This document shows positions 13,125 to 35,382 of a stretch of DNA of 63,943 bases, one piece after another. Both the position numbers and the translations under genes were made by a program. The notes below the pieces were generated by a model that had not been told where the DNA came from, searched no databases, and saw only the letters and a program-made list of their open reading frames with translations. Origin of the DNA: Bacteroidales bacterium (GTDB lineage Bacteria > Bacteroidota > Bacteroidia > Bacteroidales > CAIWKO01); contig JAGNBV010000003.1 in assembly GCA_018004645.1 (NCBI GenBank), forward strand, positions 1-63,943, read 5' to 3'. Numbering within the stretch: the stretch's first letter is position 1; each line of letters opens with the position of its first letter.

Positions 13125-13259
13125 TGGCTTATGGTAACATAGAATTAATAAGTGGTAAGCTGCTGGTTTATAATAAAAAAATTTTGCAGTTATTGTTTTT
13201 ATGAATATTTTTATACCTAAATCAAACGATGATATAAATGTCCATATAATTACTTGATT

Positions 13260-18777: not shown

Positions 18778-20340
18778 CTACTTCGTGGGTTTTACTTTTT
18801 CCCACGGCCCAATATCGTATTTCTTAATCATCTGCCGGTAGGTATCGGCATCCCCGATTATTTTTTTGATGTGATTATGATAGCTGGTCATGGATAGTAT
18901 ATGGGAGAATCCCATGTCGGTAGCCACTTTTTTGCGCAGGATGAGGGAAATCATGTAGTTATAAAACTTTCGCTTATATGGTTCCGGTCTAAAGGCATAC
19001 TCTTTGAATAGTTTTGCCAGCAGTCTGATCACAAAGCCGGCGCCAGGTTTCCCATCATTGTATGGCTTGCGAAAGTATCCATCGCCAAAAAGCACGCTGG
19101 CCTTTTTATACAATGATTCAAAAGAATATATTTTGGTAAGCGTTTCGAGATATTTGTCAAACAAATCAATCTGCGACATCTTATAGTAATGGATGCAGGG
19201 AAACAAACCGCCCATCATGTCGGTGTCGATATCGTACATACGGCCTTCGGCGGTAAGCCTTTTTTGCAGCTCTGAACCGTAAGGTGCACCAAGAATATTG
19301 AAGTTTACATAAGAGAGTCCTGTGCGTTGCGTAAACTCGTACAGGTGGTCAAATTCTTTCGCGGTATCATTGTCAAAACCAATTACAAAAGAGGCCGTGA
19401 TATGTATGCCATGAGAATGGATTTTTTTAATGGCGTCCTCGTAGATCAGGGCGTCGCGGTTTTGCTTCTTTTTGGTTTCGAAAAGGCTGCCTGCATTTAA
19501 TGATTCAAAACCAATAAGGATATTAAAACATCCGGCATTGTTCATCGCGGTGAGTAATTCTTCTTCGCGGGCAATTTCGATGCTCGACATACAGCCCCAT
19601 GAAATCTTCAGCGGGGCCAATGCTTTCATCAGGTCGTGGGCGTAACGTTTATTGGCGGTGAGGTTATCATCCACAAACAGCATTTTTTTTACCGGCAGGG
19701 ATTTTATTTCTTCCACCACGTTGGAAATTTCGCGGTAACGCATTTTGTGCCCAAACAGGTTGGTGACCAGGCAGAACTCGCACTTGTAAGGACAACCGCG
19801 CGAAACCTGAATGCCTACCTGAAACACCTTTTTCATATCTACCAAATCCCAGCGGGGGATGGGTATTTCTTTAAAATCAACGTATTCGCCCGAATTGTAA
19901 ATTTTTTGCAGTGCTCCCTGTTCAAAATCCTGCAGGCATTTTTGCCAGGCGCTTTCAGCTTCGCCAACCACAACAGCATCGGCATGTTTGATGGCCTCAT
20001 CGGTCATAAAGGATACGTAAGGCCCTCCGATAATTACTGTAGCGCTTTTTGACCTGTACCAGTCGCCGATTTCATAGGCTCTTTTTGCTGTGGTAGCCAG
20101 TGTGGAGATGCCTACTATTTCAGGAATTTCTTCGGGCAAAGGTTCAAGTTCTTCATCTATGATACGCACCTGGTATTCGGGGGGAGTAATGGCTGCAATC
20201 ATAGGCAAGGCTAGGGATACCATAAACTTTTTTTTGCCCATCATTTTGCAGAGTTCGGTCTGCCCGTAATAATTTACATATTTCTGTCCGGGCATGACCA
20301 GAAAAATTCTTTTTGAGCTATGTGTCTTTCCGTCGGTCAT
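18778..20340 (-). CDS. Cobalamin (B12)-binding-domain radical SAM enzyme (class B), long form
   Basis: N-terminal B12-binding-like domain (IVGISTLATT...VIIGGPYVS...VVVGEAE). Radical SAM cluster motif CPYKCEFC. ATG at 20340 preferred; the TTG at 20349 would overlap the KASIII stop by 4 nt. Confidence 0.8.
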   Translation of the reverse strand: MTDGKTHSSKRIFLVMPGQKYVNYYGQTELCKMMGKKKFMVSLALPMIAAITPPEYQVRIIDEELEPLPEEIPEIVGISTLATTAKRAYEIGDWYRSKSATVIIGGPYVSFMTDEAIKHADAVVVGEAESAWQKCLQDFEQGALQKIYNSGEYVDFKEIPIPRWDLVDMKKVFQVGIQVSRGCPYKCEFCLVTNLFGHKMRYREISNVVEEIKSLPVKKMLFVDDNLTANKRYAHDLMKALAPLKISWGCMSSIEIAREEELLTAMNNAGCFNILIGFESLNAGSLFETKKKQNRDALIYEDAIKKIHSHGIHITASFVIGFDNDTAKEFDHLYEFTQRTGLSYVNFNILGAPYGSELQKRLTAEGRMYDIDTDMMGGLFPCIHYYKMSQIDLFDKYLETLTKIYSFESLYKKASVLFGDGYFRKPYNDGKPGAGFVIRLLAKLFKEYAFRPEPYKRKFYNYMISLILRKKVATDMGFSHILSMTSYHNHIKKIIGDADTYRQMIKKYDIGPWEKVKPTK

Positions 20341-20345
20341 ATCAA

Positions 20346-21455
20346 TCAATAATAACGAAGTGTAAAACCAGCCTGCATAAATTTGCTGACTTCAGTAACA
20401 AAACTTATGATCAGGTCGTTTGGGAAAAGCTTTTCTTCCCTTAAAATCTTGTCGAGGCAGATGAAAACCATAGGAGGGCCTATATAGCCCATATCGTTCA
20501 TCCGGGTGTAGAGGGACTCTTTTTTTATTCCGAGTTGTCCGCATTCTTCGATAATCATCTCGGCTATATGTTTTGACGGGAAGTTGACCTGGAAGAATCT
20601 TAATGTGCTAAGGTCGATACCGTATTTTTCAATCATGCGTTTCAGGCCTTTGTAAAACACCGAGCCGTCGTCATCATGAAAATGCATGCGCAGTTGTTCG
20701 TTAAACATCTGTGCCAGGTGATGATCGCCGTTTTCGAACTCTTGTTTGGGGTTTTGCCAATAGGCGGGACGATGGTTGAGCATAGCCGCAGGTTTCTTAC
20801 CGCCGACAGATTCCATAAACACATTTTCAACGAATAATCCTTTATGGTCTGTGGCTTTTTGCAGTACCAGCGCTCCTGCGCCATCGCAAAGGAAATACCG
20901 CAGAAACAATTCTTCTTTTTTCAGTAAGGGCTGATTGTAATACTCCGCTATTAATTCTGAGGAGGAAATGCCCGATGAGACCACCAGCGCGTTATCGTAT
21001 CTGCCCGATTGTATGAACTCATAAGCGATCAGCAGGGCTTTGTAGGCGGAGGTGCAGTTAGCATGTATTGATACTTCAGCACAATACTCAATGCCAAGAG
21101 CTTCCTGTATCCTGACGCTGGCCGTAGGCATCTGGTGCTGATGTGCGCTGCCATAAGCGATAAATTGTATGTCTTCAGGTTTCATTCGGGCCATGTCAAG
21201 AGCCTGGCGTGCTGCCTTGACGGCCATGGTTACATTGTCTTCGGTAAACTTGCGGGTTTCGGGATCGATGGCATAATGATAATATCCGATATCAAGCATT
21301 TCTTTCATCACCGGCCTGATACGTGAAAGCCATCTGCTTACAGATGCCGGAGCGTCTGTTATTTCACCCAGGTAACGGTCGGTTTCTTCAAAAGGAACCG
21401 CCTTGCCTGGCAAAAACCTTCCCGTTCCTGTTATTTTAACCCTGTGATCTGACAT
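20346..21455 (-). CDS. KASIII (FabH)-like thiolase-fold condensing enzyme
   Basis: 369 aa. Candidate Cys-His-Asn triad (HANCTSAY; FPSKH; MNDMGYIGPP). FabH/type-III-like size and layout. Confidence 0.75.
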   Translation of the reverse strand: MSDHRVKITGTGRFLPGKAVPFEETDRYLGEITDAPASVSRWLSRIRPVMKEMLDIGYYHYAIDPETRKFTEDNVTMAVKAARQALDMARMKPEDIQFIAYGSAHQHQMPTASVRIQEALGIEYCAEVSIHANCTSAYKALLIAYEFIQSGRYDNALVVSSGISSSELIAEYYNQPLLKKEELFLRYFLCDGAGALVLQKATDHKGLFVENVFMESVGGKKPAAMLNHRPAYWQNPKQEFENGDHHLAQMFNEQLRMHFHDDDGSVFYKGLKRMIEKYGIDLSTLRFFQVNFPSKHIAEMIIEECGQLGIKKESLYTRMNDMGYIGPPMVFICLDKILREEKLFPNDLIISFVTEVSKFMQAGFTLRYY

Positions 21456-22114
21456 TATTTCGATTTTAAAAATTTCCCGACATAATAGTTTCTGAGTTCC
21501 GGGTTATAATTGTCATAAATTTGCCGGGCAAAGTTAACTGCTTTTACGATAATTTCATCTTTCCTGACCACCTTGTCGATAAGCCCCAATTGTTCAGCTT
21601 CTGATACATTCAGGTTGTTTCCTTTAAGCATCAGTTCCATCATAGTTTTTTTTCCTGTAAATTTTGAAAGATAAACAGAACCACCGCATCCGGTCATCAG
21701 GTTGAAGCTTGCTTCGGGAAAACCCAGCATAATATTTTCGGCAGCGATGCGAAAATGGCAGGCCATGGCCAGTTCCATGGCAGAGCCGATACACACACCT
21801 CTGATGGCGGCAATGACAGGTATTTTAGCTGCATGAAACCTTTTAAAGGTGAGGCTGTTTGCCATGTAAAAATCTTTAGCCTGTTGCGGATCCCTTGTGT
21901 CAAACGATAACAAATCCCTGATATCAGCTCCGGAGGAGAAATGCCTTCCTGCACCGCTTATTATGATCGCTTTCACGCGTTCATCATTCAGGATCTTATC
22001 TGTAAGTTCACGGATCTCATAGAAGAAAAGCTTGTTCATGCTGTTAGCCGGAGGGCTGTTCAGTTCAATGAACCCGATATTATCTTCAAAACGCCAGTTT
22101 ATACTTTGGTACAT
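21455..22114 (-). CDS. Enoyl-CoA hydratase/isomerase (crotonase) family protein, short (219 aa)
   Basis: Oxyanion and acid motifs ISGAGRHFSSGADI, CIGSAMELA and GFPEA. The stop overlaps the KASIII start as TAATG. Confidence 0.8.
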   Translation of the reverse strand: MYQSINWRFEDNIGFIELNSPPANSMNKLFFYEIRELTDKILNDERVKAIIISGAGRHFSSGADIRDLLSFDTRDPQQAKDFYMANSLTFKRFHAAKIPVIAAIRGVCIGSAMELAMACHFRIAAENIMLGFPEASFNLMTGCGGSVYLSKFTGKKTMMELMLKGNNLNVSEAEQLGLIDKVVRKDEIIVKAVNFARQIYDNYNPELRNYYVGKFLKSK

Positions 22115-22863
22115 TACAATGATCCGGATTTTCTTCTTGCGGCTTCTTCCTCAGCCAGTTCGCAGAACATAAGTGTTTCTTCATGCAGTGCTTCGTGCAG
22201 CGGGAGCTTATAGGCATTATGGATTGACTGCATAATAGAAGCGATCACCTTTTTAGGTTTTGACTCAAGCATACTATTCAGATATTTCAATGAATATTCC
22301 AAAACATTTTCTTCCGTCAGTTGATGTACTACATTTAATTTTAATGCTTTTTCCGCATCGAAAATTTCTCCTGATAATACATTAGCTATGGCTGCATAAG
22401 TTCCTGACTCTTTTACCATCCGCACGATGCCACCCAAACCGGGCAATAATGCGGAATTTATTTCAGGAAACGCAAAAAGAGCTTTTGCCGAAGCAAACCG
22501 TATATGGCACGACAGGGCAATTTCCAGCCCTCCGCCCCAGCAAACACCATTTATTGCCGCGATGACAGGGATTTTTAATTCTGATATTTGTTCAAGCAAT
22601 TCCGAGCCGGCTGTCATTTCTTGTTTAAGAATATCAGGATATTTTACCAGCTCAAAAAGGTTTTCCAGGTCGGCGCCGGCTGAAAAGTGACGCCCTGTGC
22701 CGGTGATGATTATCCCTTTTATTTCCTGGTCATCAGCGATATTGTACAATAGTTCTTTGCTGATAAAGGAAGGAGATTTCAGATAGTTTTGCGGGGGGCT
22801 GTTTATTTTCAACACTGAAATACAGCCTTTTTTTTCGATAAGGATATTAGCTGATTGGGACAA
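22114..22863 (-). CDS. Enoyl-CoA hydratase/isomerase (crotonase) family protein
   Basis: ITGTGRHFSAGADL, CWGGGLEIA, AFPEI. TTG start 2 nt after the thioesterase stop. Its own stop overlaps the next start as TAATG. Confidence 0.75.
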   Translation of the reverse strand: MSQSANILIEKKGCISVLKINSPPQNYLKSPSFISKELLYNIADDQEIKGIIITGTGRHFSAGADLENLFELVKYPDILKQEMTAGSELLEQISELKIPVIAAINGVCWGGGLEIALSCHIRFASAKALFAFPEINSALLPGLGGIVRMVKESGTYAAIANVLSGEIFDAEKALKLNVVHQLTEENVLEYSLKYLNSMLESKPKKVIASIMQSIHNAYKLPLHEALHEETLMFCELAEEEAARRKSGSL

Positions 22864-22865
22864 TT

Positions 22866-23258
22866 TCAGTTGTTTTTGGCGAGTAATACTTCGTATTCCT
22901 TAGCAAGGCCGCAGGGCACCCTGTCCTGATTCAGCGGGATGGTTTTAACGGTGGTGTGCGAAATCTGAATATTATCATCTTCGTTGAACATATACTGTTT
23001 AAAGACGATGTATGGCCCCGAAAATTCCACCTTGCTTTTGATGAGAATATTGTCGAACAAACGGGCTTCTTTGGAATACCTGATATTGATTTCGGTAACT
23101 ACCACCAGAATTTTTTCGTTCTGTAGTTTTTCGAGGAGGCCGGTTTCTTTCATAAGCTGCCAGCGGGCCTGTTCGTAGTAGTTCAGGTAAACGGCATTGT
23201 TAACATGGTTGTATGAATCCAATTCATAGCCACGTACCGATAATCGATATTCAAACAT
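22866..23258 (-). CDS. 4HBT/YbgC-type hotdog-fold acyl-CoA thioesterase
   Basis: 130 aa. RGYELDSYNHVNNAVYLNYYEQAR is the typical 4HBT N-terminal motif. Confidence 0.7.
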   Translation of the reverse strand: MFEYRLSVRGYELDSYNHVNNAVYLNYYEQARWQLMKETGLLEKLQNEKILVVVTEINIRYSKEARLFDNILIKSKVEFSGPYIVFKQYMFNEDDNIQISHTTVKTIPLNQDRVPCGLAKEYEVLLAKNN

Positions 23259-23296: not shown

Positions 23297-23698
23297 TCAG
23301 GATTTGCTGTTTTGTATTAAATTATCAACTTTTGCTTTTTCTATCTGGCTCCATTTTGGGTCGGTAAATTTGGAGCCGGTCCATGCAAAGTCAACCTGAA
23401 AAAAACTTTCATTTAAAAATGTCAGTTTTGATTTAGCATCCGGTGTGTGCACGATAAAAATTACCTTGTCATGGTCAATGGCAAACTCGGAGCATATTTG
23501 TGTTGCCAGGGGTGCGCAGAAATTTGTTACCGAGGTGCCGGGGTTTTCAGCGTAGAGTTCGGTGGCAATGATAATGGTTTGCCCGTTGTTTTCCACAATT
23601 TTAAGTCCGCAGCGTGAGGGGGCATCCCATTGGCCTTTGAAATCGTATACTTCAGTAAAATATTCAGAATTATTTTCGTTGTTGAAATGCTTAATCAT
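23297..23698 (-). CDS. Hypothetical 133-aa protein embedded in the cluster
   Basis: Clean ATG ORF on the same strand, 21 nt after the rSAM stop and 38 nt before the thioesterase start. I recognise no motif. Confidence 0.4.
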   Translation of the reverse strand: MIKHFNNENNSEYFTEVYDFKGQWDAPSRCGLKIVENNGQTIIIATELYAENPGTSVTNFCAPLATQICSEFAIDHDKVIFIVHTPDAKSKLTFLNESFFQVDFAWTGSKFTDPKWSQIEKAKVDNLIQNSKS

Positions 23699-23719
23699 AA
23701 TACCAGGTGAGCTTTTTGA

Positions 23720-24994
23720 TTATCTAATTACTTTTTTCCCAAAACTGCTTCTTGATAATTCTTCGCGTATGGGTTTGTAGGTGCCATTGGCGATTTCTTT
23801 CATGATGACCGAGCGGAAAAGCTTAAACATTTTTTCCGACTGGGTTTCATCTTTGTAAAAAGTATCCCATGCATAATGGTACAATTCCTGGAGTTTTTCA
23901 GGAGTCATCTGTTTAGGCTGAATGACCACTTTACCGGCGTTGTAATTATTCCAGTCCTTATCGATGATGCGGTTTTGCCTGAGCATGTCGTCGTAAGCTT
24001 TGGTGTGTGGGAAGGGCGTAAGTACGGTAAATTCGGCCAGGTCGAGGTTGACTTCGAGCAGGAAGTCGATCAGCCGTTTAATGTCGTCTTCAGTATGGTC
24101 GTCGGTTCCCAGTAGGATAGTGCCTTCTACCGCGATTCCATGGTCGTGGTAACGTTTTATTCTGTTTTTGATATAGTCCGAAGTATCGAATACGGCCTGA
24201 TATACAAACCATGCTCCGGCTTGTGCCGCCATGTCGAGTACTTCATCGTCGTCTTCAATAGGGTGGGAGCACCAGTTTTTCTTGAAGGGGATCATTTCGC
24301 GGAAGAGGTCGAGTTCCCATTGTTTATCCTGTGCCAGTGAGTTGTCCACGATAAACAGCCTGTTGTTATCGATGGTGGCCAGTTCTTCAACCACCTTGTC
24401 GATGGGGCGCGGCCTGAAGCATTTTCCTCCGAGGTAGGCTACAGCGCAAGGGTAGCAGTTGTATTTGCATCCACGCGAAGCATGGAAAAGGTCCACCATA
24501 CGCACTCCTTTGTGGTAGTATTTTTCCGTGTTCAGAATACTTCTGCGGGCAGGGCCGATGGTATTGATATCAGGGTGTACGGTGAGGTAATTATAAACTT
24601 TCTGCAATTTATTGTTGGCAAAATCCTCAAAAACTTTTTCCATACGTCCTTCGGCTTCACCAAGAAATATTGAATCGGCATATTCCAGAGTTTCCTCGGC
24701 ATGCAGCATGGTGGATATCCCGCCAAAAATCACTTTTTTGCCCCGCTTACGGTATTCGGTGGCAATTTCCCATCCGCGTTTTATCTGGCTCGTTAGCATC
24801 ATAGAAATGCCAACAAAGTCAACATCATTGTTAAAAATAACTTCGTCTACATTTTCGTCCGTAAATTCCACATCAACATAATCGGGTAAGGCGGCAGCCA
24901 TAACTACCGGGCCATGTGGTGGCAGATTAAAAGTGGTTTGTCCTTCGAGTTTTTCCCATTTAGGGTAGATAAGTTTGAATTTTATGCGTTGCAT
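23720..24994 (-). CDS. Cobalamin (B12)-binding-domain radical SAM enzyme (class B), short form
   Basis: FVGISMMLTS...VIFGGISTM...IFLGEAE B12-binding-like domain. CKYNCYPC radical SAM motif. Clearly paralogous to 18778..20340. Confidence 0.8.
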   Translation of the reverse strand: MQRIKFKLIYPKWEKLEGQTTFNLPPHGPVVMAAALPDYVDVEFTDENVDEVIFNNDVDFVGISMMLTSQIKRGWEIATEYRKRGKKVIFGGISTMLHAEETLEYADSIFLGEAEGRMEKVFEDFANNKLQKVYNYLTVHPDINTIGPARRSILNTEKYYHKGVRMVDLFHASRGCKYNCYPCAVAYLGGKCFRPRPIDKVVEELATIDNNRLFIVDNSLAQDKQWELDLFREMIPFKKNWCSHPIEDDDEVLDMAAQAGAWFVYQAVFDTSDYIKNRIKRYHDHGIAVEGTILLGTDDHTEDDIKRLIDFLLEVNLDLAEFTVLTPFPHTKAYDDMLRQNRIIDKDWNNYNAGKVVIQPKQMTPEKLQELYHYAWDTFYKDETQSEKMFKLFRSVIMKEIANGTYKPIREELSRSSFGKKVIR

Positions 24995-25204: not shown

Positions 25205-26704
25205 TCAGGTGTTATTAATTTTTTCCACCAGATATTTCATTCCAAGCAGTTCGGCACAGGTAGTTACCGAGCCAATAGTAACGCCCAGTACGCCGTGGAG
25301 AATAATGCTCTGGCCGGTAAGAAAGAGGTTGGGTATTTTTGTCCTCGGCATGATGAGAGTCTTCAGAGGTTCGTGGCAATCCTTGGCCACGCCATAAATA
25401 GAGCCGTCCACTGTACCGGTATAATCCCGGAAAGTCAGCGGACTGGAGGTGTAATATTTTTTAATGGTACTGCGGAAACCGGGGAAGCGGATTTCTACGG
25501 TGTCGAGCAGTTGTTCGGCTTTTTGCTGTTTAAAGGCCTGGTAATCATCACCACGGTGTTCAATAGTGGTATGTTCCCATCTTCTGACTTCATCCATTGA
25601 CATGTACGTAAGGATGGTAGCGCAGTCGGCAAAATTTTGCTGTTGTTCGCTTGAAGGCGTGATCAGCAGGTAGTTATTGGGCCAGCCTTTTCCGCGGACA
25701 TCATGCGAATACCATACGTTGTTGTTTTTATAGTAATATACGTTATGGTTCAGGTATTCGAAGGCGTCTTTTTTAAAGACTATATACATGATGAAATTTG
25801 ACGTGGTATTTTCCAGATTTAAGATACGTTCCCTGTAGGCGCTGCGGATTTTTGTCCTGTCAACCATTTCAATGGTTTTTGCGGGGTGTATGCTGGAAAT
25901 AATATTGGTGGCAAAAAACGATTCGCCATTGGTGAGTTTTACGCCGGTGAGTTTTTTGTTGTCAAAAATAAATTCCTCTACCTTGGATTTTTTAAAAATA
26001 GTGCCGCCATTTTCAATTATGGATTCTGCAAGGATAGTAGCTATATGTGAGCTGCCTTTCACCACCCGCCACGAGCTTTCGATAAAAGAATTATTGACCA
26101 GGGCGTGGACATACAGCGGGGTTTTTTCGGGTATGCCTGCATACAACGGGTTGCTCCCGGCGAGCACATTTTGTAATTTGCGGTTATGTGTAACCGATCT
26201 GATATAATCGAAAGCATTTTCCGAAAACAACTGAAGCTCTGACACCTGAAATTCGTTTTCTCTTATGCTGTACAGCGGAAAATGATTGCAAATATCTTTC
26301 AGCTTGCCGACATATTTTTCCAGTTCCTTTCTTTCGGACGGAAAATGGTGGCAGAGGCCATCCACAAAATGCTCATGCCCCATGGCAAACTTGTATTCCA
26401 CGGGATCTCCGGCAAAATTGATGGTGTCGAAACCATTTGCATCCATGCGTTTCAGGTCCAGTTTGTCCATCAACCCGAAGTACTTAAAATAACGGTTCAG
26501 CACCTGGCCTTCGTCCAGGCCTCCGATGAAATGAACGCCGGTATCGAACACGCAATTATCGCGGGTAAAATTCTGCAAACAGCCGCCAATCTGGCTATGT
26601 TGCTCAAGTATGCAGACTTTCATTCCCTCCCTGCTCAGGATATAGCCGCATTGTAAACCGCCAAGGCCGCTGCCGATAATGATGACATCAAATTTATTAT
26701 CCAT
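25205..26704 (-). CDS. NAD(P)/FAD-dependent oxidoreductase of the phytoene-desaturase (CrtI-like) family
   Basis: N-terminal dinucleotide fold DVIIIGSGLGGLQCGYILSREGMKVCILEQHSQIGG. About 500 aa. C-terminal FLTGQS typical of this family. Confidence 0.75.
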   Translation of the reverse strand: MDNKFDVIIIGSGLGGLQCGYILSREGMKVCILEQHSQIGGCLQNFTRDNCVFDTGVHFIGGLDEGQVLNRYFKYFGLMDKLDLKRMDANGFDTINFAGDPVEYKFAMGHEHFVDGLCHHFPSERKELEKYVGKLKDICNHFPLYSIRENEFQVSELQLFSENAFDYIRSVTHNRKLQNVLAGSNPLYAGIPEKTPLYVHALVNNSFIESSWRVVKGSSHIATILAESIIENGGTIFKKSKVEEFIFDNKKLTGVKLTNGESFFATNIISSIHPAKTIEMVDRTKIRSAYRERILNLENTTSNFIMYIVFKKDAFEYLNHNVYYYKNNNVWYSHDVRGKGWPNNYLLITPSSEQQQNFADCATILTYMSMDEVRRWEHTTIEHRGDDYQAFKQQKAEQLLDTVEIRFPGFRSTIKKYYTSSPLTFRDYTGTVDGSIYGVAKDCHEPLKTLIMPRTKIPNLFLTGQSIILHGVLGVTIGSVTTCAELLGMKYLVEKINNT

Positions 26705-26903: not shown

Positions 26904-29900
26904 TTATTTTTTTATTAAATACAGGGTGTTGGAGGTTATCCTTGGATTTTTTATTATCTGAACATTTACATTCAGTGATGCTGCAATATCCGCCAGTCTT
27001 GCTGCCGAAAAGAAATGAAGTTTGTCGTTTGCGGTTTTGTTAAACCCAAAATTTGTAGACATAAACTCTGTCCATCGTGTTTTTCTATGTTGCCGTTCAC
27101 TGTCTTTATTCGCATCCCTGATCAAAATTATTCCCCCCGCATTCAGCCTGTCAACGCATTGGTGCAGTATGCCGAACTGATTTTCGGGAGTCAGGTAATG
27201 CAGTACATCGCTCAGAATAAAAACATCGCTATTCCCAAATTCATAGCTGGTGATATCTTCGTGAGAAAACATAACATTAGGCGGTTTTGACAGGCAGTGT
27301 GAGGCTACATCAATTTTATCCCTGTCGTAATCTATGGCCACAATTTTCCTTTTGGGCGATACCCAGGCCAGCATCATAGATAAATAGCCATAGCCGCAGC
27401 CAATGTCTATTATACGGGCATCGCGCGGAATGATGTCGTTGTATTGGCTATAATTATTCTCCAATTTTGATTTTATCCGCGTGTACCATTCCAAAACCGG
27501 GCCTTTGTAAATAAAGTTTTTTATTAAAATATCGCGGTATAGTCTGGTGTCACTGTAATAGTCGTTTAAGAGCTTTTGGTGCTCCTGTCTGAAATGATGC
27601 TGAATATTTTTTGTCCGTTCGGTGTAATTGGCCCCCATGGCAGTATCGCCGGGTTTTATTCGGTCGAGAAACTTAACGGTTATCAGGCTTTTTTTGCCAA
27701 GTAAGTCATCTTTGGCAATATAGTTGCCCGTGCCGTGGCTCACAATGGGCAGGATATCCATGTGAAGCTGTTCTGCTAAATAAAAGGCGCCTTTATGAAA
27801 ACGCCCGATATGCCCGTCGGTAGAGCGGGTTCCTTCAGGAAAAATTATGACGGAATATCCTGCTTCGGCTACCGGTTTTATTTTTTGGGCTATAACGTCA
27901 TACCCCAGTGATGCAGGTAAGAAACCTCCCAGTTTCACAATGATGCCTATCAGTTTAGAATTGTAAAACGCATCGTTGGTAATCATGATGACTTTGGGCG
28001 AAAACATCAGGAATAACGGAATGTCAATGATCGACTGGTGGTTGGCGATGATAACCGCCGGCTCTTTCAGCGTGCCGGGAGTAAAGTTGATGATTTTCTT
28101 TTTGGTGAAATACATGAGATACATGGTTGACCGGCAAACCCCGTACAGGGTCTGATGATACAACAACTGTCTTTTCTTTTTTGAAACGGGCAGTACTTTA
28201 TAGATGGTAAGTCCCAGCAGGGCTGTGATGATGCATCCAAGCAGAAAGTAAGTGTAACACACCACGGCATAACTAATACCGTAAGCGGTAAGAGGAAATT
28301 TCCGGAACTTGTTTTTTTTGTAAACCAATACGCGGAATAAGGCAGGAGCAATGGTGTACGAGCAGAAAACCACGGAAAACATCCCGATAATTGTGAGCAG
28401 TGCGATAGAACGCAGGGCAGGATGTTTGGCGAATATCAATACGCCTATGCCAACAAACATGGTAAATGCCGACAGTAATACTGCTGTTTTGTAGGAGTCA
28501 AGCAGGTCGATTCCTTTTTTATACTTTTGAAGCAGGCCGTCCATGATAAATATACTGAAATCATCGCCCAGGCCGAAGATAAAAGCTGAAATGATGATAC
28601 TGAAAATATTAAATTTTATATGGAACAGGCTCATGAAGCCCAAAATCCACACCCAGCTGATCAGCATGGGGATAAATGCCGTGATGGCGAGTTCTATACG
28701 GCCATAAGAGATTAACAGGAACAAAAAAACCAGCAGAGATGAAATGAGAAGTATCGTATTAAAATCTTTTTTGATGATTTCAATAAACTGAGTCAGGATA
28801 TTTGAGGGTTCCACCACCAGGGTATTCGTAGTTTCAGGGATGGCGGCCAGCACCTGATCATACCTTTGGTTTTTTATTTTCAACGGGCTAAATACGTAGT
28901 TGTTCTTTTCATCATGATGGATATAGGGTTGGGCAAAATGTTCTTTGAGCCATCCAAAGTCTCCTGGACTAATGCATGAATAATTCTTATCGAGAAGTGA
29001 ATAAAAATCATGGAAAGCATCCTCGCTAAAGTCGTATTGGCGGGCGCTTTCGGCAAGATGGTTTTTTGTGTTTTGCCTGCGTTTATTATTCCAGAATTCC
29101 TTCCACAGACCTGCCTTAACTTGCTGCATCGAATCGGAGGGCAGGAGGGGGGAAACGCTCTGGATTTGACAAAACGCTTTGGATAGCTTCAAATCCATAA
29201 TTTTTCTGCAGGCATTTTCGTTGTGTTGCAACGCGGCGTTCAGGTTATCTCCTTTGCTGATCAGGAAAACCTGGCGTGAAGCATCTCCCGAAATATGCTG
29301 AAGAGTAGTTTCGGCCTGTCTCAGTTTTTCCGGGGTGTAGCCGAGTGTATTCATGTCGGTTTCAAAGCCGGGTTTCCCGGCCATAAAAAACAAAAACACC
29401 GTGATGACAGCCAGAGCCACTATCAGATAAGGATTCCGTTCGGGGTGGTAAGCCGATATCCTGTCGATGATATTCGTCTTTGAAGGGCCGCCTGTTTCCT
29501 CATTCTTGTGTTTTATTATGAAAGGCAAAAATATCAAGGTACACAGTACCGACCCCAGCAGGCACATCGCAGCGGCCAGGCCGAAATCGTTGAGAACTTC
29601 CGACCTGACAAACAAGAGCCCCAAAAACGCGCCTATAGTGGTTACGCTGCCAAGTGTCAGCGGCAAAGATAAGTCTTTGATGACCTGTCGGACCGAACCT
29701 GTATGACGGTAATGCGAAAAAAAATGTATGGAATAAGTCAGCGCCACGCCAAGGATTATTGATCCGGCTCCCAGAGCGATGAGCGAGATGTCATCGTTAA
29801 GCAGCGACAGGATGGCCATGGAAAACAGACCGCCAAAAACCACCGGTATCAAAACCAGGATGAAAGTGGTTTTTTTGCGAAAGAACACACTGAAAAAAAT

Positions 29901-30752
29901 GAATAATATCAGTATCGCAATACCCAGGGTAACGACCACGTCTTTCTTTAGTTGCACGGAGTTTCCCACGGAAGCCGCTACCGTTCCGTAATACTGTATG
30001 GTAAGCGATTCCCTGCCGGTATTTGCCTTATGCTCCCGGATGATATTGTCAAGTTCTTTGATGAGCTTTTTGTTATGAAAACTTTCGTTGGCGGGATAAC
30101 TGGATTGAACAAACATCAACAGGTGGCGGAGGTCCTGCGAAAAAATATGGTTTTTATAAATCCTGAAATTGCTGCCAATGCCAGGCATGCGCATTTTTTC
30201 CATTGCCAAACTGCCAATGTTGAGCGGGTCGCTGACAATTTGTTTTTTCAGGAAGGTTCCGGCAGGGGAAAGCAGTAGTTTATAGTTGCTGAGCATTACC
30301 GAGTCAATATGTTCCGGAGTCAGCATTTTCTCTATACGATCATAATCTTCTCTGTCAAGGAAAAAAGGAAGATTTCTGAGAATTAAATCATAGGTGCCGG
30401 CAAAATAATTGTCGTCAAACTTGCAGGTAATATTTTTCACCATACCCTGAACCTGCAGGTTTTCGAGGTTCCGGTTGACTTCTCCGGCATAGGAAATAAG
30501 TTTGTCGGGATCAGCTTCAGGATTGTTATCCGTAAGGATAATACCAAGGTCGTTCCCAGAATTTACCATGCGTAACACCTCATGAATATTTTCAGTAGCT
30601 TTTGTTTTGGGTAAAAAATCGGTGATGTCTTCGCTGACCCTTATTCGTGTTGCCATAAACAGAAAAAACGCAACTAAAAGAAACAAAACCACAAATAACA
30701 AAAACCTTCGTTGCCTGAAAAAATCATATATTTTAAGAAATATAAAACTCAT
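26904..30752 (-). CDS. Three-domain fusion of an MMPL/RND-like exporter, a PlsC-type acyltransferase and a class I SAM methyltransferase (1282 aa)
   Basis: About 830 N-terminal aa form two TM bundles separated by large soluble loops, which is exporter-like. HX4D motif ANHQSIIDIP (about nt 28025-28045) and FPEGTRS (about nt 27826-27845) mark the acyltransferase. IIDIGCGYGYLS (about nt 27385-27412) is methyltransferase motif I. Confidence 0.7.
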   Translation of the reverse strand: MSFIFLKIYDFFRQRRFLLFVVLFLLVAFFLFMATRIRVSEDITDFLPKTKATENIHEVLRMVNSGNDLGIILTDNNPEADPDKLISYAGEVNRNLENLQVQGMVKNITCKFDDNYFAGTYDLILRNLPFFLDREDYDRIEKMLTPEHIDSVMLSNYKLLLSPAGTFLKKQIVSDPLNIGSLAMEKMRMPGIGSNFRIYKNHIFSQDLRHLLMFVQSSYPANESFHNKKLIKELDNIIREHKANTGRESLTIQYYGTVAASVGNSVQLKKDVVVTLGIAILILFIFFSVFFRKKTTFILVLIPVVFGGLFSMAILSLLNDDISLIALGAGSIILGVALTYSIHFFSHYRHTGSVRQVIKDLSLPLTLGSVTTIGAFLGLLFVRSEVLNDFGLAAAMCLLGSVLCTLIFLPFIIKHKNEETGGPSKTNIIDRISAYHPERNPYLIVALAVITVFLFFMAGKPGFETDMNTLGYTPEKLRQAETTLQHISGDASRQVFLISKGDNLNAALQHNENACRKIMDLKLSKAFCQIQSVSPLLPSDSMQQVKAGLWKEFWNNKRRQNTKNHLAESARQYDFSEDAFHDFYSLLDKNYSCISPGDFGWLKEHFAQPYIHHDEKNNYVFSPLKIKNQRYDQVLAAIPETTNTLVVEPSNILTQFIEIIKKDFNTILLISSLLVFLFLLISYGRIELAITAFIPMLISWVWILGFMSLFHIKFNIFSIIISAFIFGLGDDFSIFIMDGLLQKYKKGIDLLDSYKTAVLLSAFTMFVGIGVLIFAKHPALRSIALLTIIGMFSVVFCSYTIAPALFRVLVYKKNKFRKFPLTAYGISYAVVCYTYFLLGCIITALLGLTIYKVLPVSKKKRQLLYHQTLYGVCRSTMYLMYFTKKKIINFTPGTLKEPAVIIANHQSIIDIPLFLMFSPKVIMITNDAFYNSKLIGIIVKLGGFLPASLGYDVIAQKIKPVAEAGYSVIIFPEGTRSTDGHIGRFHKGAFYLAEQLHMDILPIVSHGTGNYIAKDDLLGKKSLITVKFLDRIKPGDTAMGANYTERTKNIQHHFRQEHQKLLNDYYSDTRLYRDILIKNFIYKGPVLEWYTRIKSKLENNYSQYNDIIPRDARIIDIGCGYGYLSMMLAWVSPKRKIVAIDYDRDKIDVASHCLSKPPNVMFSHEDITSYEFGNSDVFILSDVLHYLTPENQFGILHQCVDRLNAGGIILIRDANKDSERQHRKTRWTEFMSTNFGFNKTANDKLHFFSAARLADIAASLNVNVQIIKNPRITSNTLYLIKK

Positions 30753-30758
30753 GCTGCG

Positions 30759-31586
30759 CTAAGGTTGGTTATTGGTGGGATTTTTTGCAGTTTTTTTTTG
30801 CCGGGTAGCAACATCGAACGTCATTTTTTTCTTTATAAATTTCAGCAGTGCTAAAGGTTTAATAATAAAGAAAGCTAAAAAAACCAGTATCGTGTTTAAA
30901 ACGCTTATTCTGAAAAAATCGCTGAACGGCCTGAAGTGCGAAACACGTTCACCGGCCGGTGGATAATAGACACTCACAGGGATGGGTATGGTCCTGATGC
31001 CACTCCAGGCCGAACGTACCAGCACTTCCACTTCAAATTCATATTTCCGGCCAAAAAATCTTTTTTTGTGTAACAGGTACAAGGGATAGGCCCTGAAGCC
31101 TGATTGCGTGTCGGGCAGTTTACGGCCGGTTTCAATATAAAACCAGAAGTTCGAAAACTTATTGCCAAAACTGTTTTTTGCCGGCATGTTTTCCGTTTGC
31201 AGGTTCCTTGACCCGATGATGATTGCTCCAGGCACTTCCATTATTTTCTTCAGAAAAGCAGGCAGGTCGGATGCGAAATGCTGTCCGTCGGCATCTATGC
31301 TTATCCCATACCGAAAACCCATGCTATGTGCATACCTGATGGCTTTTCGCAGCGCATAGCCCTTGCCTTTGTTTTTTTTATTATCCAAAATATGAATGCC
31401 GGAAAAGCTTTCCAGAATCTTCCCTGTTTTATCGGTCGATCCGTCGTTAACAACGATGATGTTGCCCGTGTATTCAAGCACCTCCGACAATACCTTGCCG
31501 ATGGTGCCGGCGTTGTTATACGTCGGCATAATCACACAACAGTGCAGTTCATCGAAAACAGCTTTTATGTCAGCCAGGTCATCCAT
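30759..31586 (-). CDS. Family 2 glycosyltransferase (polyprenol-phosphate glycosyltransferase-like, C-terminal TM helix)
   Basis: VIMPTYNNAGTI, VVNDGSTDKT, SIDADGQH (DxD). The ATG at 31586 gives an 8-nt overlap with the upstream gene. The track TTG start at 31619 would overlap by 41 nt. Confidence 0.75.
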   Translation of the reverse strand: MDDLADIKAVFDELHCCVIMPTYNNAGTIGKVLSEVLEYTGNIIVVNDGSTDKTGKILESFSGIHILDNKKNKGKGYALRKAIRYAHSMGFRYGISIDADGQHFASDLPAFLKKIMEVPGAIIIGSRNLQTENMPAKNSFGNKFSNFWFYIETGRKLPDTQSGFRAYPLYLLHKKRFFGRKYEFEVEVLVRSAWSGIRTIPIPVSVYYPPAGERVSHFRPFSDFFRISVLNTILVFLAFFIIKPLALLKFIKKKMTFDVATRQKKTAKNPTNNQP

Positions 31587-33252
31587 CGGTTGCGCAGGTT
31601 TTTTTTTCACAAAGATCAAGGTGTTTGCGGATTTCCTCTTTCTCCTTTTTGGTAGGGATTTCTTTTTGGAGGGCTATACGATAATAAGAAGTTGCATGTG
31701 TATAGTCTTTTCTCCTACGGAGGTAATCGCCGGCGGTGCTGTAGGATAAAAAGTATTCAGGGTTAAGGCCAATCATTTCTTCAATCAAAGCATTCACTAT
31801 GCCTTGATTTTCATGAGTTGCGAGCAACTCTTTCCTAATTTGCTTGAATCTTTCAAATTTCTCAAATTCTCCGTTGGTCAGCATGGGATCGCCCGGTATT
31901 ACAAGGGTTTCTGTGATTATATTACAGGTATCCTTGATGGATGAGGGCTTCCCGAATACCGTATTCAGGTCATAACATAAGAATTCTCCAAGGTTGAACG
32001 GCCCTGATGAAACCCACATTTTTAATTCGCCGGGCTTGAAAATGATGGCGTGATGGGCCAGCAGCTGGTTAAGGGTGTATTCGTTGCCGTTACCTATCGG
32101 CTTATCCTCCAACCCTAGGCGATTTCTTAGTATCCCTACGGCTTTTTCAACTGTAATTTGCCCGCTTCGTTCAAACAACTCACGGGTTCTTTGGTACCGG
32201 TACATTGAGGCCGTATCGTTGATCTGCCGTATGTTCATCGGGTCTTTTTTAAGGGCCTCCGACTGAAAGTGGTTGGTGCAGATAATCTGGCCGTTGTCCG
32301 GTTCAAAAATTTCGGTCCGGTAAGGAGTTTTTTCGATAATCAGTGCTTTGTTATCCCTGCCGGAGCTTACCAGAAAAGATTCGGATACTGAAATTCTGCG
32401 CTTGCGGGCAATTGCCACGGCCTCTTCGATAGTGCCGGCATATTGCAGCATTTCCCTGACCAGTATGGTAACCGGTGTGGAGATACTGCGGGGCATTTTT
32501 GATTTGGCTGCATTTACCGTAATGGCCAGACCTTGCATATTCATGCCCGAAACTGTTCCTACCAGGCCGCCCCAGGTGATCATGGCGAATTTGTTGCCCC
32601 GGTCGGGCGCGTAAAAAGAAATAATTTTCTCTTTGCAAAACTCATCACCGGCGTAAAAATCAAAATTCCGTGCATGTAACAGGTTGCCGTCGGGCGTGTG
32701 TTTTCCTGAAGCAACAAATGCTGTGCACCCGACCAGGTTGATATTCACCAGGGCGTGGGCTATATCGTGAGCCGCATGGTAATTGAGTATGCGCAAATAA
32801 GCAGGGCCTATCATCCGGAACCTGGCTGATGCCGAAAGAGAAACCCCGTAAATTTCAAGATCGTATTCCTTGCTGATATTTCCCTTTAACTTGCGGTTCA
32901 TCCATAAAGAAACAATTTTAAGAAACTGAAGGTAAAAGTTGTTGGGTATCCTTCTTTTTATCTCTTCAATAAAAAGGTTTTCCTGAGTATAGATCAGCTT
33001 TTCGGTCAGCCGGCCATTAATGATGCCGCGCTCATAAGGCGCTCCTTCAATGTACATTTCATAAAGCCCTCTCGAATTGAGGTGGCACCAATTATTGCCC
33101 AATTGAAGCATACGGTCGGATTTTTGCACGGGCTGATAATCGGTCAGGTCTGTGGCAGGAACCGCCGGATGCCTTTTGTAAGCACGTAAAAAATAAATTA
33201 GAATCACAGCAACAGTCAGCAGTAACAGGCCAATAAGTATATTCAATACCAT
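31579..33252 (-). CDS. C45-family (acyl-CoA:6-aminopenicillanic-acid acyltransferase-like) Ntn-hydrolase-fold protein with an N-terminal TM anchor and a C-terminal TPR-like tail
   Basis: N-terminal TM helix. LVG-CTAFVASGKHTPDGNLLHARNFDF fits the Gly-Cys autoprocessing/nucleophile site of C45/Ntn enzymes. The C-terminal YLRRRKDYTHATSYYRIALQ is TPR-like. Confidence 0.55.
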   Translation of the reverse strand: MVLNILIGLLLLTVAVILIYFLRAYKRHPAVPATDLTDYQPVQKSDRMLQLGNNWCHLNSRGLYEMYIEGAPYERGIINGRLTEKLIYTQENLFIEEIKRRIPNNFYLQFLKIVSLWMNRKLKGNISKEYDLEIYGVSLSASARFRMIGPAYLRILNYHAAHDIAHALVNINLVGCTAFVASGKHTPDGNLLHARNFDFYAGDEFCKEKIISFYAPDRGNKFAMITWGGLVGTVSGMNMQGLAITVNAAKSKMPRSISTPVTILVREMLQYAGTIEEAVAIARKRRISVSESFLVSSGRDNKALIIEKTPYRTEIFEPDNGQIICTNHFQSEALKKDPMNIRQINDTASMYRYQRTRELFERSGQITVEKAVGILRNRLGLEDKPIGNGNEYTLNQLLAHHAIIFKPGELKMWVSSGPFNLGEFLCYDLNTVFGKPSSIKDTCNIITETLVIPGDPMLTNGEFEKFERFKQIRKELLATHENQGIVNALIEEMIGLNPEYFLSYSTAGDYLRRRKDYTHATSYYRIALQKEIPTKKEKEEIRKHLDLCEKKTCATDG

Positions 33253-33300
33253 TCCATTATCTTTAGCTTACAAAATTATCTTTTTTTGGATTGCCGCTGT

Positions 33301-34062
33301 TCAAAAATCACCTTGATGGTACTGTGCGCTGAGCTGTTTGAATTCAGTACGCATTAGCCGCATGACATTATCAGTGAGTTCCTGGTAAGTGGCGCCATAT
33401 CCGGGACTTTCCACGGTTACCGGATCAAGAAATTTTACTAAGACATCACCGTGCTTGAGGTAAAACCAGCTTTTTTTCAGTATTTGCGGCGAATAAAATA
33501 TCACTACGGGCTGTATGTCCATCCTGAGTTTTTCTGCAACAAAAAATCCTCCTTTGTGAAAACGCGATATCGTTCCGTCTTTATTCATTTTACCTTCGGG
33601 AAATATCAGTAACGGACATCCCATTTTTACAGGTGTCCTGAGCTCTTCAACCAGCAGTTTTTTTTCTTTGTAAATAGAAAACAGGTTTATATATTTTGTA
33701 AGGAAAAACCTGGCCCAGACATTATCATGCCAGTTGTTGTTGAGTACACAAACTTTTGAATCGAAAGCCGTAGTAACCACTACATCGGTAAACGACTGAT
33801 GGTTGCATACTATCATTACCGGCTTATCAAAGGTATTTTTCTTTTTATTGATATATCGTACCCGGATATTAAAATGCGTTTTAATCACAAAGCGTGCATA
33901 CCCTACTAACAGCCGGGTGTAAAAATCATCAGCTTTCTTTTTTTTGTGTGTAAAAGGCGCAGGAATCAATAAGGTAAATACCTGTGAAGTGATGATGAAA
34001 ATTATAAACGAAACCAGTCCTTTGAAGAGTATCAATAGTTTTTTTAGTTCTTGTGTTGCCAT
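33301..34062 (-). CDS. PlsC/LPLAT-family lysophospholipid (1-acyl-glycerol-3-phosphate-type) acyltransferase
   Basis: TM anchor, HX4D motif CNHQSFTDV, and the FPEGKMN motif. Confidence 0.75.
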   Translation of the reverse strand: MATQELKKLLILFKGLVSFIIFIITSQVFTLLIPAPFTHKKKKADDFYTRLLVGYARFVIKTHFNIRVRYINKKKNTFDKPVMIVCNHQSFTDVVVTTAFDSKVCVLNNNWHDNVWARFFLTKYINLFSIYKEKKLLVEELRTPVKMGCPLLIFPEGKMNKDGTISRFHKGGFFVAEKLRMDIQPVVIFYSPQILKKSWFYLKHGDVLVKFLDPVTVESPGYGATYQELTDNVMRLMRTEFKQLSAQYHQGDF

Positions 34063-34221: not shown

Positions 34222-35382
34222 TTACATTTTGATGAATTTTTGAGTAACTTTCTGACCATTTTCACCAATCATGGTTACCCAATATATGCCCTGGCAGAAG
34301 TGGCTGATATCAATACATACCTGCCGGCCTTTATGACAGGAACTAAACAGTTTGTTTCCGGTAATACCCGTAATTTCAATACGTACCTCTTTATCCTCTG
34401 CAAAGCTAATATTCAGTTGGCCTGAGGCAGGGTTGGGGAATAAGGTCATAGCAGGCAGCGAGCATTCATTGGTGTTTATCGCTGATGGATTGATGGTGCA
34501 ACTGTGGATGCGGGTAACTTTCGTGGAGTTGTTTAATGAATCAAGGAAGTTGTTCCATGAAGCGTTGTTTCCTTTTAAAAAGTAATCCAGATAAGGCATA
34601 ACAAAATTCATGGCCGTAAGCTGCTGTTCGGCCCGCGACAAGGGTACACCGCCGGGATGACAGCTTTCTTCACCTGTAGTGCATATAAAATTGTAGTCGG
34701 CAAAGTTACAGTGTCCGCCGTTTTTGATGCTGATAAAGGTTTTACATGGTGAAGAAAGCGAATCGAACATGGGTGTCTGGTGTTCATCGGGTGGCGCCAC
34801 ACAATCCATTTCGCCTGCTATTACCATGGCCGGGATGCTAACATTGGTGGCCGCATGAATTGACGATGGGTTGGTATTGGCAGCGGCAAAGGTAACCATC
34901 ACGTTAGGTACGGAATTGTTTTCGCAGGCCAGGAATGCAGCACCGCCACCCATCGAATGCCCCATAATGGCGGAGGTGGCGCTGACTTTCTGATAAAAAG
35001 GCGACGAGCTGTTTGTCCCTTCTGATTTTAATTGATTGATAAGGAAAGCAAGGTCACGACCAAATTCCAAATGATCTGGTGTTCCGCTTTCTGTTTTAGG
35101 CAGGGCCACGATATATCCCATGGGAACGAGGACCGTCCATACATTTTCATATGCCGATACACCCATCAGGAAGCCATGGCCATAAACAACTATGGGGAAT
35201 TGTCCGTTGGCAAGGGCAGCATTGTCGCCCGCCGTGGTTCCCGGATAATAAACTTCTGTTTCGATATTGCGGTTGCTACGCGCCGGATCCTGGAAAGTGA
35301 TGGTGCGGTGGCCAACCTGAAATTGTGCAAAAGAACCTGAAAAATAAGATAACAGGGCAAGAACAAATAAAATTCTTTTCAT
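34222..35382 (-). CDS. Secreted alpha/beta-hydrolase of the dienelactone-hydrolase/cutinase (PETase-like) type with a T9SS type A CTD
   Basis: Signal peptide. Nucleophile elbow GHSMGGG preceded by NSSSPFYQKVS. Candidate acid and His residues in GEMDCVAPP and NGGHCNF. C-terminal LFPNPASGQLNISF...GIYWVTM...KFIKM. Confidence 0.7.
   Translation of the reverse strand: MKRILFVLALLSYFSGSFAQFQVGHRTITFQDPARSNRNIETEVYYPGTTAGDNAALANGQFPIVVYGHGFLMGVSAYENVWTVLVPMGYIVALPKTESGTPDHLEFGRDLAFLINQLKSEGTNSSSPFYQKVSATSAIMGHSMGGGAAFLACENNSVPNVMVTFAAANTNPSSIHAATNVSIPAMVIAGEMDCVAPPDEHQTPMFDSLSSPCKTFISIKNGGHCNFADYNFICTTGEESCHPGGVPLSRAEQQLTAMNFVMPYLDYFLKGNNASWNNFLDSLNNSTKVTRIHSCTINPSAINTNECSLPAMTLFPNPASGQLNISFAEDKEVRIEITGITGNKLFSSCHKGRQVCIDISHFCQGIYWVTMIGENGQKVTQKFIKM

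Follow-up and report, generated by a model that had tools for sequence, protein, structure and literature searches.

The window considered here is the whole 63,943-nt stretch of contig JAGNBV010000003.1 from a Bacteroidales bacterium (assembly GCA_018004645.1), and its subject is a cassette of four minus-strand open reading frames (ORFs; 20346-23258). Read in the direction of the strand, they encode: (i) a thioesterase; (ii) a long crotonase; (iii) a short crotonase; and (iv) a condensing enzyme of the KASIII fold, referred to below as the KS (ketosynthase). Pfam and NCBIfam place the four proteins, in that order, in the 4HBT_2/YbgC-FadM-like, ECH_1, ECH_1, and ACP_syn_III families. The ORFs bear out the tight packing described in the original prediction, which had been made from the DNA letters alone: the thioesterase and the long crotonase are separated by 2 nt (TGAAATTG, i.e., TGA-AA-TTG), the other two junctions are TAATG overlaps, and the ORF after the KS has two candidate starts, a TTG that overlaps the stop codon of the KS (20349) and an ATG lying 5 nt beyond it (20340). 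The condensing enzyme is a sister of the StlD/DarB family with a rewired active site, and is not the housekeeping FabH.

The condensing enzyme and its rewired active site

The KS is a member of a large family, highly conserved across two phyla, for which no curated model and no paper were found. Among NCBIfam models it scores 118 bits on StlD/DarB (cut-off 450) and 91 bits on DarB (cut-off 550), the two models of this family being NF005293 and NF053539, and 82.7 bits on FabH/KAS III (TIGR00747, cut-off 292.1). Its closest solved relative is StlD (PDB 5gk0, E-value 6e-18). In a maximum-likelihood tree, the KS clade is the sister of StlD/DarB (joint node 100/99) and lies outside the StlD/DarB clade itself (StlD clade support 100/100), with FabH and the other KASIII groups apart from both. 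The model scores agree with the tree labels, as members of the KS clade reach 100-133 bits and true DarB/StlD members 400-606. The fold points the same way. An AlphaFold (AF2) model of the KS, built from a 52-sequence alignment, has a predicted local distance difference test (pLDDT) score of 94, and a Foldseek search with it returns StlD chains at the top (template-modeling scores of 0.86-0.88), ahead of AbyA1, FabH, CorB, PqsD, and OleA, the last of these at rank 36 or lower. A search for the family matched 1559 database clusters at an E-value of 1e-5 or below, and no cluster among the top 120 shares less than 67% identity with the KS; when the family is clustered at 50%, the representatives with an E-value below 1e-30 number only 34.

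The active site was mapped by aligning the KS to StlD with HMMER and, with MAFFT, to FabH, StlD, and about 60 relatives; the StlD numbering was verified on the tagged PDB chain. The nucleophile is the only catalytic residue that aligns, StlD Cys126 corresponding to Cys134 of the KS. His302 is replaced by Asn291, Asn337 by Tyr324, Ser340 by Pro327, and Glu154 by Gly162 (a position that varies among Ser, Gly, Asn, and Gln within the clade). Mori and colleagues reportedly found in 2016 that Glu154 is the base catalyst of StlD, with His302, Asn337, and Ser340 also important. Of the candidate Cys-His-Asn triad read from the sequence by the original prediction, the Cys therefore stands, but the positions of the His and the Asn are held by Asn291 and Tyr324. 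Cys134, Asn291, and Tyr324 are invariant in 121 family members, and in the wider clade (20 representatives, down to 31% identity) the Cys and the Tyr are always present and the His, the Asn, and the Glu never. The clade has also acquired invariant polar residues that are specific to it (Glu127, His131, Asn133, Lys139, His245, His246, and Lys358), and these, together with the invariant Cys134, argue for a working enzyme. Thus, a thiolase-fold enzyme has dropped the known catalytic set of its nearest relatives save for the Cys and has gained polar residues of its own, a pattern that predicts new condensing or transfer chemistry. As both the His and the Asn are missing, decarboxylation of malonyl-acyl carrier protein (ACP) is not expected.

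Like FabH, the KS has the thiolase/KASIII fold, a nucleophilic Cys in the same elbow, and a DGAGA motif. In contrast to FabH, it has neither the His nor the Asn. Housekeeping FabH was rejected as its identity on account of its score (83 vs. 292 bits), its separate clade, and the presence of the canonical FabH of the same genome on another contig (C141, 362 bits). Neither of the two outcomes that the original prediction had named as refuting it has occurred, namely a tight grouping with housekeeping FabH in a genome devoid of a canonical fab operon, or loss of the catalytic Cys. The wider idea that the cassette belongs to primary metabolism or catabolism, either with a housekeeping FabH or as a degradative operon resembling beta-oxidation, draws on the fact that all four proteins come from families of fatty acid metabolism. 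It is extremely unlikely, however, because the genome carries acpP-fabF on C102 in addition to the FabH on C141. Moreover, only 9 of 151 sampled genomes of the order have the KS, which was found in none of a further 400 sampled across the phylum, and exporter, glycosyltransferase, and radical SAM genes surround the cassette.

Crotonases, thioesterase, and neighboring genes

Both crotonases match ECH_1 (PF00378) far over its cut-off of 27 bits, the long one at 123 bits and the short one at 127 bits. As the original prediction had noted, each keeps both acidic catalytic positions, namely Glu114 (GGGLE/GSAME, with GGGLE in the long crotonase) and Glu134 (FPE), and these two residues are kept in all of the approximately 28 orthologues of each (27 for the long crotonase). 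The unusual shortness of the second crotonase is likewise genuine and conserved, at about 210-235 a.a. in most intact orthologues; its ECH_1 match spans profile positions 2-193 of 251, and the whole protein aligns with the hydratase domain at the N terminus of FadB/FadJ. The remainder of FadB is matched by a separate 3-hydroxyacyl-CoA dehydrogenase (3HCDH), which accompanies the cassette in other genomes. In the PDB, both crotonases are nearest to ordinary enoyl-CoA hydratases (short-chain ones for the long crotonase), and the DpgD model gives about 101 bits against a cut-off of 400. The thioesterase matches Pfam 4HBT_2 (PF13279) at 54.8 bits (cut-off 25.5) and TIGR00051 at 67.9 bits, just below the cut-off of 68.7; its best PDB match is E. 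coli YbaW/FadM (1njk), and an N-terminal motif, ELDSYNHVNN, with Asp14 can be read from its sequence. In more than 20 loci, its orthologues (39-84% identity) hold this position too. These crotonase, FadM-like, and FadB matches indicate that the cassette and the 3HCDH are beta-oxidation-type (CoA-type) parts, which in the related loci described below are joined to ACP-type parts.

Two crotonases beside a thiolase-fold enzyme, together with a discrete ACP, a second KS, and an acyltransferase, recall beta-branching of the 3-hydroxy-3-methylglutaryl (HMG)-CoA synthase (HCS) type. In such a scheme, the KS, like PksG or CurD, would add acetyl to a 3-oxoacyl-ACP, and the crotonases would act as the ECH1 dehydratase and the ECH2 decarboxylase. 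This role is very improbable, as HMG-CoA synthase models align with the N-terminal third of the KS alone, at just 31-46 bits, and the Glu-Cys-His set of these synthases is absent from it. ECH2 decarboxylases are not known to keep the Glu pair, whereas both crotonases do; the partner KS keeps its Cys and does not have the Ser of a decarboxylating KS0, and the tree groups the cassette KS with StlD/DarB. HMG-CoA synthase-type beta-branching was mostly rejected on the synthase scores, the Glu pairs, and the partner-KS Cys.

The cassette forms part of a lipid block that runs from 34062 to 18778 (Table 1) and comprises, in this order, export and attachment genes, a CrtD-like flavoprotein gene, a radical SAM gene and an orphan, the cassette, and a second radical SAM gene.

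Table 1. Genes of the cassette and of the surrounding lipid block (positions in the window)
Feature	Position	Strand	Length	Remarks
Hotdog-fold acyl-CoA thioesterase, YbgC/FadM-like	22866..23258	-	130 aa	
Full-length crotonase/enoyl-CoA hydratase	22114..22863	-	249 aa	TTG start
Short crotonase	21455..22114	-	219 aa	TAATG overlap at both ends; without C-terminal helices
KASIII-fold enzyme (KS), StlD/DarB-sister clade	20346..21455	-	369 aa	Cys134-Asn291-Tyr324
B12-binding radical SAM enzyme with DUF4070	18778..20349	-	523 aa	Start overlaps KS stop
Orphan protein	23297..23698	-	133 aa	Between the 424-aa radical SAM gene and the thioesterase
Second B12-binding radical SAM enzyme	23720..24994	-	424 aa	
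CrtD/phytoene-desaturase-like FAD enzyme	25205..26704	-	499 aa	Only flavoprotein near the cassette
Flexirubin/aryl-polyene-style export and attachment genes	26904..34062	-		Assigned with Pfam and NCBIfam

The product of the gene directly downstream of the KS carries Pfam B12-binding, Radical_SAM, and DUF4070 domains. No NCBIfam model matches it over the cut-off, the top ones being HpnJ and PhpK at about 92 bits, and orthologues with 50-94% identity come immediately after the KS in the loci of Bacteroidales, whereas in those of Spirochaetota they do not. The original prediction had cast a neighboring FAD oxidoreductase as an aromatase or desaturase; the adjacent gene is instead this radical SAM enzyme, and the CrtD-like gene lies three genes upstream of the thioesterase. 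The CrtD-like protein matches Pfam NAD_binding_8 and Amino_oxidase and reaches 128 bits on the CrtD model, under its cut-off, and homologues are present in related clusters. The 424-aa radical SAM protein has a Pfam B12-binding match of 37 bits, plus weak matches to radical SAM families, and is 85-91% identical in the nine loci of the close lineage (L001-L009), above the conservation of the KS in that lineage. The 133-aa orphan, for which Pfam and NCBIfam searches gave no match, is found in the same position only in these nine loci, at 66-77% identity. This pair of genes (23297-24994) is missing from the more distant loci. On TIGR04072, the two radical SAM proteins of the window reach only 53-74 bits.

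The export and attachment genes comprise an MMPL-PlsC-methyltransferase fusion, a GT2 glycosyltransferase, a C45/AAT-family protein, and a PlsC acyltransferase. The fusion is a single ORF of 1282 aa (26904-30752) that combines an MMPL/RND-type exporter, a PlsC-type acyltransferase, and a class I methyltransferase, and occurs also in L004, L026, and L040. Directly upstream of the lipid block (34222-35382) lies a gene for a PETase/cutinase-like alpha/beta hydrolase with a C-terminal sorting domain of the type IX secretion system (T9SS).

A recurrent module that is split in this genome

The order thioesterase-crotonase-crotonase-KS recurs in more than 25 loci from two phyla, so the grouping is more than chance. 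Its carriers are Bacteroidales, Prolixibacteraceae (including metagenome-assembled genomes labeled Draconibacterium), Spirochaetota, and Leptospirales. Within the cassette, conservation is highest in the KS, with 63-72% identity between Bacteroidales and Spirochaetota, compared with 38-47% for the crotonases and the thioesterase. Outside the close lineage, the 3HCDH and a FabF-like KS lie beside the cassette in every locus with enough flanking sequence, ACP and FabD genes adjoin it in most loci, and two or three B12-radical SAM genes are nearby. The genomic partnership of the cassette with FabF, ACP, FabD, 3HCDH, and B12-radical SAM genes is obligate. The Cys-His-His triad of the FabF-like partner is intact, and the serine of the DSL motif is present in the ACP. 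OleBCD-type genes were not seen in the annotated contexts, and literature searches found no description of the module.

Six Bacteroidales-type loci share one gene order (L012, L020, L021, L023, L014, and L040). It begins with a ketosynthase/chain-length factor pair (KS/CLF; twice), a deacetylase, LolA, LolB2_flexi (over the cut-off), and an ApeI-like dehydratase. It continues with the thioesterase, the two crotonases, the KS, the DUF4070 radical SAM enzyme, the 3HCDH, (a Haem_bd protein), the FabF-like KS, the ACP, FabD, and (a PNPOx protein). It ends with a TIGR04072-like radical SAM enzyme, an HpnR-like radical SAM enzyme, GT2, and the MMPL-acyltransferase-methyltransferase fusion. One radical SAM protein of L040 reaches 296 bits on TIGR04072 (cut-off 360). 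KS/CLF, ACPs, LolA/LolB2, the ApeI-type dehydratase, exporter, acyltransferase, and GT2 occur together in relatives such as L012, L021, and L040, and the fusion protein and GT2 flank the cassette-bearing clusters L012, L021, L023, L026, and L040. In Bacteroidales, the setting of the module is flexirubin-like, the cassette usually being embedded in a flexirubin/aryl-polyene-like cluster. In Spirochaetota loci, the cassette is accompanied by the 3HCDH, the FabF-like KS, ACP, FabD, and two radical SAM genes. A 39%-identical member of the KS clade lies in the order KS-ACP-ACPS-KSIII-crotonase, followed by FabD and a B12-radical SAM gene, and the distant Cys-x-Tyr members of the clade (P0135, P0136, P0144, and P0151) are found on short contigs or among unrelated genes. 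Near module parts in two contigs of the genome under study (C127 and C123) and in L028 and L041 are BtrH_N/DUF4872 proteins, extra ACPs, a FabG-like short-chain dehydrogenase/reductase, a PMT_2 glycosyltransferase, and further B12-radical SAM genes.

The genome from which the window comes (G000) is 93% complete. It encodes a 3HCDH-KS-ACP trio in the middle of another contig (C55:3501-6115), among unrelated genes; compared with the L040 copies, its KS and ACP are about 70% identical and its 3HCDH 44%. FabD and a PNPOx protein are encoded on C59, and KS/CLF, LolA, and ApeI on C16, while orthologues of the remaining two radical SAM enzymes of the module are on C66 and C123. The flexirubin/aryl-polyene-type genes of this genome are spread over C4 and C16. 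With the trio on C55 and FabD on C59, the module is split in this genome and not ACP-free. At least seven PP-binding matches and about eight B12-radical SAM genes were counted in the genome. Large T9SS-tailed proteins, 61% identical over 645 aa, adjoin both halves of the split system, one in the window (13254-18683, after the DUF4070 radical SAM gene) and the other near the trio (C55:8912-14971). An ancestral cluster that was once contiguous may have been broken up by recombination between the two paralogues.

The original prediction had proposed that the four genes work at the CoA level, in a DarB/OleA-like condensation free of ACP, with a neighboring flavoprotein aromatizing the ring. The window has no ACP gene along its 64 kb, the crotonases and the thioesterase are CoA-type, and the CrtD-like FAD enzyme is in the same block. 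Nevertheless, this version is improbable. The ACP, FabF-like KS, and FabD genes adjoin the cassette in relatives and have orthologues in this genome, the adjacent gene encodes a radical SAM enzyme, and an ACPS-like gene lies inside the cassette in two loci. In both, this 115-aa gene stands between the two crotonases (L026:8987-9334 and L042:8999-9346), and it is matched only weakly, by PRK14660 (36 bits) and by AASDHPPT_N. The cassette could supply enoyl and ketoacyl partners, as had been suggested, once the 3HCDH of related loci is added, but the four genes by themselves include no maker of a 3-oxoacyl thioester. As for the DarB/OleA-like logic, the kinship with DarB holds in sequence, tree, and fold, while that with OleA falls with the absence of the OleA Glu and His from the KS and of OleBCD-type genes from its annotated contexts.

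Proposed role and comparison with known systems

The four genes are tentatively proposed, at somewhat less than an even chance, to be the core of a conserved, uncharacterized lipid-biosynthetic module in which the KS joins its partners as StlD and DarB do. A DarB-like role in non-decarboxylative joining or ring formation is the best guess. In relatives, the full module consists of the thioesterase, both crotonases, the KS, the 3HCDH, the FabF-like KS, the ACP, and FabD, sometimes with the DUF4070 B12-radical SAM enzyme, and with two further B12-radical SAM enzymes. FabD, the ACP, and the FabF-like KS could produce a 3-oxoacyl thioester, and the 3HCDH and the two crotonases, which are of the true hydratase type, could interconvert 3-oxo, 3-hydroxy, and 2-enoyl thioesters. 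The KS would load one partner on Cys134 and join the second to it without decarboxylation, in a head-to-head or ring-forming manner. In the rewired site, Asn291 and Tyr324 may serve as hydrogen-bond donors, and Glu127, His131, Asn133, His245, and His246 are possible acid/base groups. The thioesterase would then release or edit the product, and the B12-radical SAM enzymes would tailor it without oxygen. In strict anaerobes, a flexirubin-like pigment or lipid may have this product as its non-polyene lipid partner. Neither an enoyl reductase nor a DarA homologue was seen in the module loci or in this genome, which is counted in favor of the proposal; DarA was sought by tblastn with the 306-aa flavodoxin-like DarB neighbor of another genome (G503).

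Several findings weigh against an StlD/DarB-like role. All of the StlD residues reportedly important, except the Cys, are replaced (Glu154, His302, Asn337, and Ser340), and judging from these replacements the chemistry of the KS may differ from that of StlD/DarB. The distributions of the KS and of DarB are not complementary either: DarB/StlD is found in 15 of the 151 genomes of the order, and both enzymes in 2, where about 0.9 would be expected by chance, so there is no mutual exclusion. As this co-occurrence is about what independence predicts, replacement of DarAB cannot be claimed from distribution. One complete genome (G503) carries a bona fide DarB with a flavodoxin-like partner apart from the module. 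In this 4.6-Mb genome of the same order (loci L045-L048), the DarB scores 606 bits, has a 306-aa flavodoxin-like neighbor, and lies about 480 kb from a thioesterase-crotonase-crotonase-KS-3HCDH-KS module. Finally, the module of Spirochaetota has no visible aryl-polyene genes.

The main rival to the joining proposal takes the KS for an acyl-transfer or priming enzyme that performs no condensation, modeled on the KASIII-like acyltransferases CerJ, DpsC, and MupB. It would move an acyl group between CoA and the dedicated ACP, or form an ester on a hydroxyl, while the FabF-like KS, the 3HCDH, and the crotonases would carry out a reductase-less extension to an unsaturated or hydroxy acyl chain, which the B12-radical SAM enzymes would methylate or cross-link. 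This is possible, though doubtful. The His and Asn needed for malonyl decarboxylation are lost from the KS, a complete set of elongating KS, ACP, and FabD accompanies the cassette, the CoA-type enzymes of the cassette and the ACP-type partners require a CoA-to-ACP hand-over somewhere, and flexirubin-like products require ester bond formation. On the other hand, known KASIII-like acyltransferases retain a His as base, and this His is gone from the KS. Furthermore, the nearest relatives by tree and fold are cyclases that form C-C bonds, and the high conservation, with an additional invariant Glu and His residues, looks beyond the needs of a simple transferase.

In a more specific form of the joining proposal, strict anaerobes would use the module to build lipid rings of the resorcinol or cyclohexanedione type without oxygen, with the crotonases aromatizing by dehydration. 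The rewired StlD-like KS would join two 3-oxoacyl thioesters, supplied by the private FabF/ACP/FabD set and the 3HCDH, using Cys134 with Asn291 and Tyr324 and possibly His245, His246, and Glu127. The crotonases would then act as DpgB and DpgD do, so that an oxidative aromatase of the DarA type would not be needed, and the B12-radical SAM enzymes would subsequently alkylate the ring or the chains. This particular route is rather unlikely.

At least seven studies of anaerobic digesters, biogas, and wastewater have yielded metagenomes with near-identical DNA. In one activated-sludge metatranscriptome, four short contigs match the KS (97% identity), the 424-aa radical SAM gene (100%, over 23993-24148 and 24491-24707), and the flavoprotein gene. 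These contigs indicate at most that relatives transcribe genes of the cassette block, and the indication is weak. The module is always found with B12-radical SAM genes in anaerobes of digesters and sediments, and its product may belong to an unknown class of membrane lipid or pigment. Genome mining based on DarB or TIGR04072 could plausibly label such clusters "resorcinol," "arylpolyene," or "ladderane."

Among characterized systems, the KS most resembles StlD/DarB, known from the stilbene pathway of Photorhabdus, the dialkylresorcinols of Pseudomonas and Chitinophaga, and the flexirubin of Flavobacterium. The two share a KASIII-derived fold with the StlD-type insertion, the catalytic Cys, and frequent residence in flexirubin-like clusters. 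However, the KS has no partner of the DarA/StlC type, and is accompanied instead by two crotonases, a thioesterase, a 3HCDH, and B12-radical SAM enzymes; moreover, it coexists with a true DarB in two of its nine genomes. With flexirubin/aryl-polyene clusters, the system shares surrounding genes, with an MMPL-type exporter, a PlsC-type acyltransferase, a methyltransferase, and GT2 in the window, and KS/CLF pairs, LolA, LolB2_flexi, and an ApeI-like dehydratase in relatives and on C16. The canonical flexirubin clusters of Flavobacterium johnsoniae and Chitinophaga pinensis (flx/darAB) contain DarA and DarB (PMC3992019). Such clusters are without crotonases, 3HCDH, and B12-radical SAM genes, whereas this genome has no DarAB (no DarB homologue was found in it) but has the cassette and the radical SAM genes, and the hosts are of strictly anaerobic lineages.

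The non-anammox ladderane-like clusters with TIGR04072 radical SAM genes (Rattray, 2009, PMC2649909; PMC9902471) also place B12-radical SAM genes beside FabF and ACP and include a phytoene-desaturase-like flavoprotein. The ladderane clusters described for Kuenenia have no crotonase, 3HCDH, or KASIII-like gene, and a direct link to them was rejected since they lack the crotonase and the KASIII enzyme. OleA differs in having a Cys-His-Asn triad and a Glu from the partner subunit, of which the His and the Glu are absent from the KS. Two other systems resemble the module in part. In FadBA, the N-terminal domain of FadB corresponds to the short crotonase and the rest of FadB to the 3HCDH, alongside a thiolase-fold partner, and in DpgA/B/D two crotonases accompany a small condensing enzyme. 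The module differs from both in its thiolase-fold partner, which is neither a FadA nor a type III polyketide synthase, but an enzyme of the KASIII type.

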